A DNA stretch of 50,103 nucleotides, taken from Terrimicrobiaceae bacterium (lineage in GTDB: Bacteria > Verrucomicrobiota > Verrucomicrobiia > Chthoniobacterales > Terrimicrobiaceae). The position numbers are program-made. This document shows positions 40,801 to 46,800 of the stretch, piece after piece (the first letter of the stretch is position 1; every line of letters starts with the position of its first letter). Location of the stretch: NCBI GenBank assembly GCA_044342325.1, contig JBIIPZ010000022.1:1-50103 (forward strand), read 5' to 3'.

Positions 40801-43800
40801 CAGAGCGATGCCGGCGAAACCCGCAATGGAGCCGATGATGGATGCCGCGAAAAGGGTGAATAGAACGGCCTGCCAGCCCAGGAAGGCGCCAATGCAGGCG
40901 ATGAATTTCACATCGCCGAACCCCATGGCCTCTCTGGGAATCACGACCGCCTTCATTTTGCCCGAGATGCGCTCGAGCTGGTCCAGTGACCCGCTGGATG
41001 TTTCAAACTCATAGCGGTTGTGCCAGAATTTCAGCTTGCCGCGAATTTCGGCACCATCAGCTCCCAGTGCGGCCCCGTCGACTTCAATCGTGAGCACATC
41101 GCGCTCTCTCGAAAAAATATCCATCCAATCCAGTTCCTCGCCCGCCAGCGTTAGCACGGCGCGATCCCCCTGCCTCCTCCATTCAAAGTCTTCCGCTTCG
41201 GGAAATGCATGCCGGATTTTTCCAAATGCCAGCTTCCCTCCCTCCACGACCAGGAAGAGCAGTCCAAAGCCAAGGGCGGCCCCTCCGAGCGAATAGGCCA
41301 GAGACTCCCAACGCGAAACGGAATCCATCATTTCCGGGACAAGCGCGGCGAAGACAACCCCCGCCACTGCACCGCCCCATGTGATTTCATCCGGAATGAT
41401 GAAATGCTCGAAATCAATAAAAGTCGCCACCACGAGCAAGCTCACAAAAACCCAATACACGACCGCCAAAGGCAAACCGAAACGCTCCCACACGACGGCA
41501 AAGAGCAATGCCGTCAGAGCCTCAACCAAAAAGTAACGGAACGGAATCCGCCATCCACAGCCTGAACACTTGCCGCGCAAAGCAAGCCAACTGAACAGCG
41601 GCAGGTTCTCATACCAGGGAATGACCCGCTCGCAACCGGGACAAAACGAGCGCCGAGGCTCGTTCAGGCCTACCCCGCGCGGCATGCGGTGGATGCAGGC
41701 GTTTAAAAACGAACCAACGATAGCCCCGAGCAGTAGGGCAAAGATCCCGAACACAAATTCACTCGTCGAACCGTATGGCATGAACTCGCAAGAGCGTAGG
41801 GAGGAACGCCGCAGGTGGAAAGGCGCAAGGCTTCGGATTTCACCCCATTGAGAGGCTTCAGAGAAGATTGTTTGGTGTGAATGTGAGCGGGGGCTCGTTG
41901 ATCGACCCACGCGAACAAACTGCGGATTCCGGCTCCGGTGGCTGTGACCGCAGACAATGAACCACACCGGCCAAAGACAATAATGAACACACTGATCCGT
42001 TGGAATCCCTTCCGGGAATTCGAAACCATGACGAACCGCATGAACAGCATCTTCCCGAGACCGCCATTAACTTGGAACATCGATGAGACGCTGAACACAA
42101 ACGAGTGGAGCCCGCTCGTGGATGTAGAGGAAACCGACAAGGAATACACCATCAAGGCTGAACTCCCCGAAGTGAAGCGAGAGGATGTCAAAATCCAAGT
42201 GGAAGACGGCTCACTCCGCATCTCCGGCGAGCGCAAACTCGAGAAGGAGGAGAGTGGACGCCGTTTCCACCGCCTTGAAAGAAGCTACGGCGCTTTCGAG
42301 CGTTCGTTCTCCCTACCCGAGGGCACGAGAAAAAACGAGGTCTCGGCCGAGTTTAAGGACGGCCTTCTGAGGGTGCACCTGCCGAAAGGCGAGATTGCAA
42401 AACCAAAAGCGCTGGAAATCCCGGTTAGCTAGGGGAAAGCCGTCCTCGTGCGTGCCCGCAAGGGCACGCACGTTAGACCTCCGCCGCCATGCAAGACATC
42501 CGCCAAACCCTGCGCGCGTTCTACAAAAGCCCCGCTGTGCGCGCGAGAATGCTGGAATTTCTTGGTGGAAAAACTCCCTCCACAGCGACATGCGACTACA
42601 TCACGGCAGATGGCGTGGAATGGCCGGTTCGCGAGCCCCGCATGCCGGACGAGCTTTTCCACAGTCTTGAGGAAGGCTTGGATATCTGCCGCTCGCTCTC
42701 CGACCGGGAATCCCTCATTGCCCATCTCGACATCGAGTATGTGAACTTTGATTTCGCCGCCGAGGCCTATCTGGACCCCAAAAGAACTTTTGAACTCCAG
42801 GAACCCGTGGCCAAAGCCATCCATCGAATCCTCGAACACTGTGGCATCCAAGCGCTCCATGTTCTCAGCGGACGCGGCCACCACTATGTCTGGCGAATCC
42901 GCCGCGACTCGCCGGTCTTTTCAGAACTTTGCGACCTCGGGTCAAAGGCCGCCAGCGATGGACATGCCCCGACACAAATCGAAAAGGCATTCGCAGGCCT
43001 AGGGCTGGTGATGGAATTTTTTGGCCGTCTCATTCTTGAAATGGCCCGCCCGCATTGCCGGATTCCAATCGAACTGACGGCCGTGGAAGTCGCGCCTTCG
43101 CAGCGTGGTCGGGAGATGATTTCTATCGACCTCTCCGAGTATGGCGACCCGCTGTCGACGCGCACGGTGCGGGTTCCGTTCAGCGGATATCTCAAGCCTT
43201 GGCAACAATCCTACGCTGTCGGTGTGGATAACATCGGTAAGATCGGGCCGATCATTTTCGTGCCTGCGGGGGAGAACGAAACCTCCGGCGCCGTGGCCGC
43301 CATGCGCGACCCCGAGCGCGCCGCGCGATGGGCGGAGCACTTCTCGACAGATATTCCCGACGCCACCTCCGGCACCGGTGAACTTCTAAGGGAATACGAA
43401 ATTTCCGACCTACGCGCCTTCCACGATTTTTTTTACTCCAGGCAACACGACCCCGTTGCCAGCTGGCCGCACACCTACGACCACACGCCTCTCGAGACCC
43501 TCCCGGAGAGTGTTCGCGATGCACTGCTTTTTCCAAACGATCTCCTTCTCCGCCCAACAACCATTCGCGCCGTCACCGAAACCCTTGTGCCCAGAGGTTG
43601 GCATCCCAGACATGTCGCCGGCCTCATCCGCTCCAAATTTGAGCGCGACTATGGCTGGGGAAAGCAATGGAAGGATTACTCCCCAAAGATGCGGGCGGAT
43701 TTTTATGTGCGGATTTTCTCGGGCTTGAAAACCAGTGTCGCCGACGAAGCTGCAAGCATCGCGGAAGCGGAACTGGAGGGATCGCACACACACCATTTTG

Positions 43801-46800
43801 AAAGGGTTCTCATATGACAAACTGGCCTATCGGTCTTTCCACAGGGTGCTTTTACATGACCAATATACTCGACTGCCTGGAGACAATACGCGCGAGCGGC
43901 TTCAGCATGATCGAGGTGGTTTTTTCCCCAGCGCATCTCGATTACAAAAACCTCAGCGCCGTGCGAGAGGCAGCGAACAAGATCGATGCACTCGGCATGG
44001 AGGCCTACTCGTTCCATGCCCCCTTCGCGACTGACATCGACATTTCCTCACCTGATGCGGGATGCCGCGAATACGCGCTGGATGAGATTCTCAAAGCGGT
44101 CGAAGCAGCAGCCGTGCTAGGCGTGCACTATTTTGTCATCCATCCAGGACCTGAAAATGCCGATATTCCCTCGCGCGAGGAGCGCCTCGTGCGGATCGAA
44201 AATGTCGTCTCCGTCCTCAATCGCGTCGCCATGCGATGCAGCGAGGTCGGCATTCGCTGCGTGCTCGAAAACAAACTCCCTCACCTCCTCTTCGGAAACT
44301 CCAGCGATATCGTCTGGATCCTTGGCGCCCTGGAGACGAATCAAGTCGGCGCCTGCCTCGACACCGGCCACGCGTTTCTCTCCGGCGAACTTTACAACCT
44401 CGTTTACAAGCTCACGCCCTATCTGCGCATGCTCCATGTGCACGACAACCGCGGCCACTCGGATGAGCACTGCCCGCCCGGCGATGGTCGGATCGACTGG
44501 GGAGCCTTCCTGCGCGAACTAATCCAAATCCATTTCCACGGCGTCTTCATTCTGGAAATTGCCGGCGGCAAGGAACCCGAGCAAATCATGGCCAGCGCCC
44601 GCAGAGGCCGTTCCTTTTTGAGAGAACACGCCCGCCGCCTCACTCTTGAGATGTCGACGCCGGTTCCCCACCGCTGATGTAACACCAACCGTTTGGGCCT
44701 CGCAAACGCGCCATGTCGAAATTGTAACACTTCATTCGTTGAGCCAAGGCAGTGCGGAAAAATAGGTTTCCGCTACGCCAATGACTCTCTCGCTTCGCAA
44801 GTCTAAAAAACAACGCGCCTTCTCGCTGTTAGAACTTCTTGCCGTCACAGCCATCCTCGCACTGCTCGCAGGCCTGCTTTCTCCAGCCCTACAAGGCCTC
44901 ACCAGCCCGACCGGACGCAAGGGCGCTGTAACTATCGTCATGAACACGCTCGAGCAAGCCCGCGTCTCGGCCATCGAAACCGGCGGCGAAGTCGTAGTGG
45001 TCTTTTGGAAAAAAAATGGAACCGATGCATCACAACCCGATGAACAAGATGCCATGCTCATCCTCCGCAAAAATGATGTCGAAGCCTGGGAACCCATCAC
45101 CCGTTGGATCAAGCTCCCGCGCGGCGTTCTGTTCCATGGCGAGGATTCAGAGTCCAAAATTCTATATGACAATTCAGGCCTTGCTGCCGTGAGCGACTCA
45201 ACAATCGACTCCCTTCCTGGAAAACCTTCCAAACACAACCTCGGTGCCATTCATTTCTCCGCCACCGGTGCCGTGCAACTACCCAGCACCTCAAATGGGC
45301 TCCGCATCGCCCTTACAGAAGGCCAGCGCGGATCGGATCGATCTCTCATCGTCGACAAGCAAAAAGACGGTGGCCACGAGATCATCTCCCTCGCCCGCTA
45401 CACGGGACGCGCTACATTGGATGTCAGCATGTTGTAAGCTTCTGGCATGACGCAGGCAAAAAGCCACTTCCGACCTGCCAACTCCCCTCTAGTCCACAAA
45501 CATCTTCCCGCATTTTCGCTGGTCGAAGTCGTGATCGCACTCGGCATCATATCTTTCGCCGTCATTGCCATCGTCGGCATGCTCCCCGTTGCCCTGAAAT
45601 CCTCCCAAAACAGCATGCGAGAGACGGATGCCACACTCATCGCCCAAAGGATTTTTTCAGAACTCAAGACAGGATCCGGCGGCAACAGATCCGTCACCAC
45701 GGACCCCAGTGGCACCTTGAACCAAACGATCAACCTCGCCGCGAATAGCACAAACTACCTCGCATTCACACAAGACGGCACAGTCCAAACGCATACAAAC
45801 ACACCCACCCCGAATCCCTCCTACGACTTCTACGCGCAGATCAGCGTCTTCACGAATACAGGCATCAGCAACCTCTCCCGCATCCAAATAGAAATCACCT
45901 ACCCCCCTTCCGCACCGCCCGCAGCAAGAACAACGAACTCTTTTGTAACGCTTTTAGGATTTTAGACAGAATTAACAAAACTAACAGAATTTATGAAAAC
46001 AGATTATGATCTGGCAGGTAGAATGATCGGCGCTGCTATGGAGGTCCATAGATGTTTAGGGCCGAGGTTTGTTGAATCTATGTATGAAAATGCACTGGCT
46101 ATCGAGTTGGAGGCCTCCGAAATTATAGCTGAAAGACAAAAGTCCATCAAGGTCAAGTATAAGGAGCAGTGTGTCGGTAATTTTTTTGCGGATTTAGTCG
46201 TAGATCAGACGCTTATTGTTGAACTGAAATCTATTCAATCCATCCTGCCCATTCATGAAGTCCAACTTGTAAACTACCTTGCAGCAACCGGCATTGACGA
46301 GGGCGTCCTATTGAATTTCGGATCGGAGAGCCTGCAATTCAAAAAGAAATTCCGAAAGCCAAAACAGTAACAAACCACAAGGGCGTTTATAAATTTTGAA
46401 ATTTCTGTTAATTCTGTCCAAAAAATCTTCTGCCTTTTCCTTATTGGAAGTCCTTGTCGCCATATCGGTTCTATCCATCATTCTCGTCATTCTTCTCAAC
46501 ATCGTCCAAAATGCCACAAGCCTCTGGCGCGGAGCTGAAAACAAGGTCGAGGCTTACCGCGAGGCGCGGGCGGCTTTGCAGGTGATGTCATCTGATTTGA
46601 AAAACATTCTGCCAACGACGAATACCGATTTTTTCCGAACGAATCTTACCAACACCCCGAATATCGGCTTCCTCGCCGCGCTGCCCATCAGTTCGCAAGA
46701 CACAACATCCAGCAAAAGCGATATTTGCGCCGTTGGTTACTTCGTCGCCTACGACAACAAAAGCCCCGTCGCCGGAAACAACGGACGCCAATCCTACAAT

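Follow-up and report, generated by a model that had tools for sequence, protein, structure and literature searches.

LigD (POL plus PE) and PolX with PHP each couple or fuse a polymerase to a metal phosphoesterase, an arrangement to which the gene pair described below is likened. PMC5862659 defines the AEP superfamily by motif I (hhhDhD/E), motif II (sxH) and motif III (hD/E); in its account, PriL-type domains hardly occur outside the primases that serve chromosomal replication, and PriCT domains are confined to mobile elements. In Prim-PolC, the 5'-phosphate pocket uses N20, K23, Y25, K35 and P65 (PMC7442782). For endonuclease IV (Nfo), the minor-groove residues are Arg37, Tyr72 and Leu73 (PMC13113976), and CbiR cuts a small-molecule phosphodiester (PMC7733943).

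The 50,103-nucleotide stretch of a Terrimicrobiaceae contig analyzed here (the window) carries an unnamed bacterial one-chain AEP primase-polymerase (gene A) next to a three-metal phosphoesterase-like partner (gene B); in the wider family the two are adjacent or fused (Table 1). Both genes are real, and the overlap of their reading frames described in the earlier note was found as an ATGA, which is also present in most close loci. An Hsp20 gene lies upstream of gene A in several close loci as well as in the window, where its start was placed by us at the ATG at 41983 (the ORF list opens at 41938). The GC and GC3 of the locus were similar to those of the rest of the genome, and no sigma-70 promoter was found for the locus. 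Contigs from one freshwater RNA run spanned hsp20, A and B, differed little and showed neither strand nor level, and three further RNA runs yielded short pieces only of this region. No description of the A-B pair was found in the literature searched; supplementary family lists, for example those of PMC5862659, could include it.

Table 1. Features of the A-B locus in window positions
Feature	Position	Strand	Description or basis
Gene A (g02702)	42489..43817	+	442 aa; predicted monomeric AEP primase-polymerase with PriL-CTD-like C-terminal domain
AEP catalytic domain of gene A, residues 1-306	42489..43406	+	VIA matches cover model residues 5-306
Motif I of gene A, D81-I-E83	42729..42737	+	Alignment conservation
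Motif II of gene A, G128-R-G130-H-H132	42870..42884	+	Alignment conservation
Motif III of gene A, D214	43128..43130	+	Alignment conservation
PriL-CTD/PriX-like helical domain of gene A, about residues 319-434	43443..43790	+	Alignment, ESM neighbors, fold comparison
Gene B (g02703), AP_endonuc_2 TIM barrel	43814..44677	+	287 aa; nine endonuclease IV-type metal ligands
ATGA start/stop overlap of A and B	43814..43817	+	Sequence
Hsp20 gene, context outside the core	41983..42432	+	Pfam HSP20 2.5e-25; 56 nt upstream of gene A

Gene A was said in the earlier note to have no Pfam, NCBIfam or PDB sequence match, and this was borne out: no Pfam or NCBIfam family was found at E<=1, a profile of 102 gene A sequences retrieved no PDB sequence at E<=10, and PDB profile searches with A1 and A3 gave no match. 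The AEP fold was recovered with a new structure model (pLDDT 95.9, pTM 0.94), for which VIA again placed Prim-PolC 6sa0 first (Z 18.1, rmsd 3.1, 250 aligned), followed by LigD/NHEJ polymerases (Z 16.0-16.6) and PriS chains (Z 11.2-12.7); the top 21 rows were all AEP-bearing chains or HP0184. The motifs, previously called invariant, are intact: G130 and D214 are each kept in 102/102 sequences, D81 and E/D83 each in 97/102 and H132 in 95/102. Gene A has both motifs I to III and the catalytic fold of the superfamily, and its assignment as an AEP is supported. The count of 1384 homologues among 8000 candidates was reproduced, at a threshold of E<=0.001 and not the E<=1e-20 originally given. ESM neighbors of the whole protein were Nanobdellota PriS/PriL fusions (0.94).

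The helical domain that had been regarded as an addition is present, but it resembles the PriL C-terminal domain and is not unassigned. Its best fold match was a primase Fe-S domain at Z 6.9, a middling value (<8) of a size that common helical arrangements also reach; next came photolyase domains (Z 5.1-6.8), which PriL-CTD is stated to resemble (PMC5700102), and then PRIM2C (5.0) and PriX (4.9). Foldseek returned no match for this domain. Its ESM neighbors were DNA_primase_lrg (0.91; 18% of members) and PriX (0.90), and the DNA_primase_lrg model was touched by only 1/102 gene A members (E 0.029). Four cysteines, one early and three clustered, are kept in 75/102 homologues, with a spacing of 85/9/5 in 45/75 as against 75/12/8 in NEQ395 (PMC10250227). 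The window clade has lost all four, and in the window copy Ser341 occupies the place of the first, and a different tail stands where the one with three Cys would be. Under the reading favored below, the ancestral domain had four Cys and probably a [4Fe-4S] cluster. Repeated cysteine loss on the FastTree tree of the family fits the finding that primases can prime in vitro without the Fe-S cluster (PMC5700102, PMC10250227). The Cys+14 position, whose offset equals that of NEQ395 R303, is Lys or Arg in 70/102 homologues. At Cys+19, Gln is found in 56/102 and Arg in 30/102; this position may be the counterpart of the primase initiation arginine (human R306, yeast R355).

Gene B matched Pfam AP_endonuc_2 at 6e-40 and, as had been claimed, stayed under the cut-offs of the CbiR model (NF041277; 57.5 bits, cut-off 105) and the endonuclease IV model (TIGR00587; 39.8 bits, cut-off 129.65). 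Its nine metal ligands (H68, H110, E152, D183, H186, H208, D217, H219 and E248) align with those of three canonical Nfo proteins and are invariant in 62/62 B sequences; S9, T10, G11, F13, E34, H41, D76 and H157 are also conserved, and the C-terminal helix is Arg-rich. In the sequence alignment B lacks equivalents of Arg37 and Leu73 and has Phe-Ala in place of Tyr-Leu. The best solved relatives of gene B are MJ1311 (5.6e-33) and TTHB071, which rank above Nfo (1.6e-12 or weaker) or alongside it.

The two genes are strongly linked. Gene B follows gene A in 76 of 80 GTDB loci, in another the contig breaks off after the first 34 codons of B, and 3 stop inside A; this gives 77/80 (one partial) in place of the 79/80 reported earlier. 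That A and B are always paired is true only of the subfamily found in the window. Among 79 metagenome loci, 34 had A and B, 18 had a tandem A-A' without B (5 with a short flank), 9 had A alone with at least 900 nt downstream and 18 were too short to judge. A divergent barrel lies upstream of A in one of these 9 (L168), and another clade retains one on that side of A as well; the B profile missed the divergent upstream barrel in the phylum of G344, and other counts of loci without B may be too high. Natural A+B fusions form one clade of 26 clusters, a figure that leaves aside P0289 and P0290, which look like frame-error read-throughs, and the single records P0125 and P0139. The identities of A and B co-vary (r 0.89, 108 pairs). 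Functional coupling of A to the barrel is supported, and strengthened by the fusions and the co-divergence. A predicted A+B complex scored 0.00, which by the tool's own statement is no evidence either way. A frameshift signal in the 59-nt A/B overlap conserved in distant loci was considered and dropped, because B of the window clade sits in a different relative frame.

We tentatively favor, with slightly less than even confidence, the interpretation that the pair is an accessory enzyme for priming or resynthesis in times of stress, equipped with an end-cleaning phosphoesterase. Gene A would be a chromosomal single-chain primase-polymerase of the PriS/PriL-CTD type, with an AEP domain for template-directed nucleotide addition and a C-terminal domain that grips the template plus the initiating or 5' end. 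The B protein would act as a three-metal phosphoesterase on strand ends, presumably of DNA, within the reaction of A, where it could strip 3'-phosphate or other blocking groups or trim the additions made by A. Together they may serve, chiefly when the cell is stressed or short of oxygen, as a module for restart or resynthesis, likened to LigD POL+PE or PolX+PHP with a priming domain added. The family is spread over several bacterial phyla, its carriers are scattered environmental bacteria, and the occurrence of gene A is patchy (8/301, 5/301, 10/251 and 4/251). DnaG was present in 5/5 genomes tested, and its replacement by gene A was rejected on this count. Stress-island markers lay <=10 kb from A in 30/52 distant loci. 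Several points run against an end-cleaning priming or resynthesis enzyme. No ligase, Ku, glycosylase or helicase occurs among the 45 recurring neighbor families of GTDB loci, and the sole recurring DNA genes near A in the metagenome set, polA (9 loci) and lexA (3 loci), each lie amid housekeeping genes of related loci. The invariant residues of the B pocket are not basic, Arg37 and Leu73 have no equivalents, and B is nearer MJ1311; the C-terminal Z lies below 8, Cys+19 is mostly Gln, and some clades have A without B. A defense or mobile origin was rejected: there was no PADLOC, PHROG (five proteins), phage, plasmid or viral-contig match (the last three scanned with the window protein), and the recurring neighbors include neither CRISPR nor mobile-element genes.

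It is possible, if rather unlikely, that gene A instead makes a dinucleotide or short oligonucleotide, or puts an NMP on a small acceptor, with the product serving to signal stress or as a sink for nucleotides, and that B is the matching phosphodiesterase. The kinship of B with MJ1311, TTHB071 and CbiR, the last acting on a small molecule, and its non-basic pocket are in keeping with this, as is H157, which is found in 107/108 paired B sequences and in 0/7 unpaired relatives. Neighbors of the pair are USP, CBS, cNMP-binding and Hsp20 genes, not repair genes, and the gene A homologue P0230 is fused to CBS domains. However, no third gene that might serve as receptor or effector is kept across clades, the defense and phage searches were negative, and the close structural relatives of A are all templated polymerases. 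In a related and likewise improbable version, a PriL-type primase was turned into a stress-linked synthase of a nucleotide signal or tag, with the barrel as eraser and the cluster perhaps an oxygen-sensitive switch dropped by the freshwater clade; if true, the pair would represent a new synthase-hydrolase class, one derived from the initiation reaction of primases.

The earlier note proposed a stand-alone gap-filling repair pair, taken here as a base-excision pair in which a Prim-PolC-like short-gap filler and an AP endonuclease offset a missing Pol I. The AEP identity of A and its coupling to the barrel held up; the rest was weakened, and we now consider it distinctly unlikely. Prim-PolC is the top fold match and B has the nine Nfo ligands. 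The window's own genome (86% complete) yielded neither Pol A nor canonical Nfo, Nfo was found in 0/10 genomes of close kin (L001-L026), and 7/8 A-bearing genomes of the phylum sample lack Pol A. Yet 175/301 phylum genomes lack Pol A and only 8/301 have gene A. Pol A occurs in 19/50 and canonical Nfo in 30/50 carrier genomes, in one clade polA is the third gene upstream of A, and Xth is present in 4/5 genomes tested; on the Pol A and Nfo counts, the pair was rejected as a stand-in for Pol I or Nfo in general. Moreover, no conserved Asn or Lys precedes the first conserved helix of gene A (median, 10 residues), and the structural alignment with Prim-PolC/LigD begins at chain residue 23-25. The N-terminal 5'-phosphate pocket segment of Prim-PolC and LigD PolDom is not conserved in gene A, which carries instead a domain of the PriL type, a type associated with de novo priming. 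The absence of Arg37 and Leu73 equivalents in B also speaks against an AP endonuclease.

RNA end repair, with B taking 2',3'-cyclic or 3'-phosphate off broken RNA and A restoring nucleotides, appears more doubtful still: AEP domains were predicted in RNA-repair systems (cited in PMC5862659), the islands repeatedly contain baeRF and PRTase genes, and rtcB adjoins the pair at L226, but this is the single rtcB case among annotated neighbors, which include no recurring RNA ligase. That B belongs to metabolism, as a sugar epimerase or another such enzyme, and merely travels with A is a doubt raised before and consistent with its database name (sugar phosphate isomerase/epimerase) and with epimerase matches to the B profile at about 1e-10; it is much reduced and now very improbable, given a full metal-ligand set that two paralogues in the same genome lack (R or E there), the A+B fusions, and the divergent barrel kept upstream of A elsewhere.

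The A-B pair appears to be an undescribed accessory tool that would restart or clean nucleic acid strands under stress. Family members with and without the four cysteines make the role of the primase Fe-S cluster directly testable, and linkage and fusion provide a genetic handle on one branch of a large uncharacterized MJ1311-like barrel group annotated as sugar isomerases. Prim-PolC and LigD PolDom share with A the closest catalytic fold (Z 16-18), a chromosomal location and the same three motifs; A differs in its missing pocket segment, its PriL-CTD-like domain, an identity of 11-16% and the absence of a ligase or Ku, in operon or fused, among recurring neighbor families. The DPANN monomeric PriS-PriL primase NEQ395 and PolpTN2 likewise combine an AEP and a four-Cys PriL-type domain in one chain, whereas the A family is bacterial, accessory, patchy and barrel-coupled, with another Cys spacing and no plasmid or phage match. 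CAPP and PrimPol-PV1, also AEPs of bacteria, have at the C-terminus a PriCT-type domain, which bears cysteines in MpCAPP (PMC8211822); their fold match to A is weaker (CAPP, Z 12.2), and A has no TPR or helicase domain, no CRISPR or mobile genes recurring nearby and none of the plasmid, phage or integrated-element association of PrimPol-PV1. The gene A family is a chromosomal, non-replicative bacterial case, with a PriL-CTD-like domain, in several phyla. Gene B shares the TIM barrel and all nine ligands with Nfo, but scores below the Nfo cut-off, differs at Arg37 and Tyr-Leu, and coexists with true Nfo in many carriers. With MJ1311, TTHB071 and CbiR it has the HAPF..D and HDN.G..D.H motifs in common; it is set apart by H157 in paired B, a subthreshold CbiR score and the absence of cobamide genes among recurring neighbors. 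Finally, compared with LigD POL+PE and PolX+PHP, the A-B pair uses another phosphoesterase fold and carries an extra priming-type domain.

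The genes for the predicted AEP primase-polymerase (A) and for the AP_endonuc_2 TIM barrel (B) were found again at the coordinates reported in the earlier note, with an ATGA overlap joining the end of A to the start of B and an Hsp20 gene directly 5' of A. GC content (0.58) and GC3 (0.65 to 0.70) at this locus were like the genome GC (0.565) and the GC3 of a housekeeping gene (0.69). A matched no family in Pfam, NCBIfam, PADLOC or PHROG; among 8000 candidates, 1384 homologues were obtained at E ≤ 0.001, and 542 representatives of clusters at 50% identity were homologous to A. 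The hsp20-A-B genes are located between a prepilin peptidase gene and a run of genes with prepilin-type motifs.

Positions of A, B and other features of the window
Feature	Position	Strand	Description
A	42489-43817	+	ORF, 442 aa
B	43814-44677	+	ORF, 287 aa
Prepilin-motif gene run	44781-47160		directly downstream of B; prepilin-type N-terminal motifs; N_methyl match on first gene
Prepilin peptidase	40666-41967	-	
ORF	37958-38359		133 aa; no Pfam match at E ≤ 1

A structure model of A, built from a 102-sequence alignment, had a pLDDT of 95.9. Its top VIA-align match was Prim-PolC (Z = 18.1; rmsd, 3.1; 250 residues aligned), the other matches being LigD/NHEJ polymerases (Z = 16.0 to 16.6), PriS chains (11.2 to 12.7) and CAPP (12.2), and Foldseek was concordant for the catalytic fold (E = 3e-4). 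The AEP motifs, as defined in PMC5862659, were intact among the 102 homologues: motif I (D81 and E/D83, each in 97/102), motif II (G130 in 102/102, H132 in 95/102) and motif III (D214 in 102/102). Positions R68, R225, R228 and K236 were also conserved. With this fold match and these motifs, the earlier assignment of A to the AEPs stands. According to PMC7442782, Prim-PolC holds the gap 5'-phosphate with N20, K23, Y25, K35 and P65. Since A starts at about chain residue 23 to 25 of Prim-PolC/LigD-type enzymes (VIA-align) and has only a median of 10 unconserved residues ahead of its first helix, this pocket is not conserved in A.

What had been described as an added helical domain of A was re-read as likely PriL-CTD-like, from four-cysteine conservation, fold ranking and ESM features. 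All four C-terminal cysteines were present in 75 of the 102 homologues, none in 23 and some in 4, with a spacing of 85/9/5 in 45 of the 75. In the window copy, Ser stands at the first Cys position and the tail is replaced. A FastTree tree computed with the cysteine columns left out showed the Cys-free clade of the window copy as a single group (support, 0.997) within four-Cys sequences, with additional losses dispersed over the tree outside this clade. By fold, the domain ranked closest to the primase Fe-S domain (Z = 6.9), then to photolyases/cryptochromes, PRIM2C and PriX, at a middling level (Z < 8); PriL-CTD itself resembles photolyases (PMC5700102). Foldseek with this domain gave no match, and Pfam DNA_primase_lrg was reached by 1/102 members (E = 0.029). 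ESM features pointed to DNA_primase_lrg (0.91) and PriX (0.90) for the C-terminal part and to DPANN PriS/PriL fusions (0.94) for the whole of A. We infer an Fe-S cluster in this domain, and priming by A is putative; priming can persist after loss of the primase Fe-S cluster (PMC5700102; PMC10250227).

All nine metal ligands of B (H68, H110, E152, D183, H186, H208, D217, H219 and E248) were invariant in 62/62 sequences, were retained wherever covered in 108 paired copies, and lined up with three canonical endonuclease IV (Nfo) proteins. Endonuclease IV intercalates Arg37, Tyr72 and Leu73 into DNA (PMC13113976), whereas B lacks Arg at the first place and has Phe-Ala for Tyr72-Leu73. The best solved relative of the B profile was MJ1311 (5.6e-33), with TTHB071 and the best Nfo at about 1e-12. 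Because the ligands are kept, the intercalating residues replaced and MJ1311 closest, B is, as judged from sequence, a probable three-metal phosphoesterase other than Nfo. H157 was present in 107/108 paired copies versus 0/7 unpaired relatives, and the C-terminal helix carries conserved arginines. B-like barrels without A (L186-L189; four genomes of one genus; about 183 bits) have the nine ligands and no H157; that of L187 comes after an apparent isocitrate dehydrogenase gene.

B lay directly after A in 76 of 80 GTDB loci (the best 80 of 180); one more held the first 34 codons of B at a contig end, and three ended inside A. Near-constant pairing held, although the earlier count of 79/80 did not, and "always paired" must yield to metagenome loci without B (see below). 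Record titles included Verrucomicrobiota, Planctomycetota, Fibrobacterota, Acidobacteriota and Desulfobacterales, among others. Of the 29 proteins retrieved as long relatives of B, 28 were B homologues, and each of these had A sequence N-terminal. Twenty-six are A-B fusions of one clade (63 to 88% identity; four cysteines; short linker; two truncated at the start), and one fusion cluster has a member labelled Planctomycetia. The remaining two apparently result from reading through a frame error. For A and B, pairwise identities correlated (r = 0.89 over 108 pairs; 0.84 for distant pairs; highest of 300 permutations, 0.14), which shows co-inheritance, as adjacency alone would also give.

A was rare in phylum samples (8/301, 5/301 with two full-length, 10/251 and 4/251, centre genomes included). 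With the window, three fragments and two second copies from places already included set aside, 26 loci were examined there: 11 had B, 7 a divergent barrel upstream and 8 neither; all 8 were low-scoring A forms ending without a cysteine tail. A divergent upstream barrel (393 aa, AP_endonuc_2; L220:6186-7364, also L221-L223, L230 and L168) occurs in a clade in which motif II of A is GQGYN (His to Asn). A divergent A subfamily of about 435 aa (L094-L099 and L228; G085, G139, G142, G064 and G876) has no cysteine tail, a D-Y/F-E motif I and 1 to 3 copies per genome, which in two cases form a convergent pair. Canonical Nfo is present in G085 and G139. A second-branch A alignment retrieved 79 metagenome loci, some of them first-branch: 34 with B, 18 with tandem copies (A-A'), 9 with A alone and 18 too short. 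Near the loci without B, the sole barrel found among 44 scanned of 56 flanking genes was at L168. Both tandem copies retain the acidic residues of motifs I and III, and A and A' may form a heterodimer. Tandems without an adjacent barrel were L104-L112, L114, L121, L122, L126, L127, L140, L147, L162, L163 and L174; motif II of A' is mostly T/S-S-G-Y-H, and the first copy at L104 has one cluster member labelled Auribacterota. One homologue (P0230) has CBS domains fused N-terminally, and one record (P0191), from a contig of 3.8 kb, carries the label Nanoarchaeota but may be misbinned.

At least one of a set of neighbour families lay within 10 kb in 30/52 distant GTDB loci, a raw count over loci many of which are related Verrucomicrobiota. 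The families were USP, Hsp20, CBS, PRTase, PCMT/EreA, baeRF, DUF2267, cNMP-binding, BON, P-type ATPase, PEP synthase, ADH, an acetyltransferase and one unnamed recurring family, a set that may represent a hypoxia or general-stress island. Other A clades lie in housekeeping surroundings, and in one of these clades polA is the third gene upstream of A. The recurring neighbours included no ligase, Ku, cas or mobile-element family. Two unannotated families occur upstream of A (L068:560-1117, 186 aa, 14 distant loci; L029:6233-7105, 291 aa, 11). DnaG was present in 5/5 carriers tested and Xth in 4/5; across 50 of the 80 GTDB loci, carriers had Nfo in 30 and Pol A in 19. In the window's own phylum, Pol A was missing from 175 of 301 genomes, but A is present in only 8 of the 301; the Pol A polymerase domain was found in only 126/301, and whole families were without it (0/26, 2/48).

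The A-B pair is real. Fusions of an AEP with a PriL- or PriCT-type domain that carries cysteines are already known (NEQ395, PolpTN2 and MpCAPP). In titles and abstract openings, covering few subscription journals, we found neither a description of the pair nor a chromosomal bacterial AEP + PriL-like family coupled to an endonuclease IV-like barrel. We tentatively favor a reading in which A would be an accessory priming or resynthesis enzyme and B its partner phosphoesterase, cleaning ends. That A and B are maker and eraser of a small nucleotide is rather unlikely. The earlier model of a gap filler plus an AP endonuclease compensating for missing Pol I is improbable; it has the Prim-PolC match on its side, and the unconserved phosphate pocket and replaced intercalating residues against it. 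RNA end repair is more doubtful still, and B as an unrelated metabolic barrel is hardly credible. As accessory resynthesis enzyme and end-cleaning partner, A and B would presumably work analogously to LigD POL+PE and PolX+PHP.
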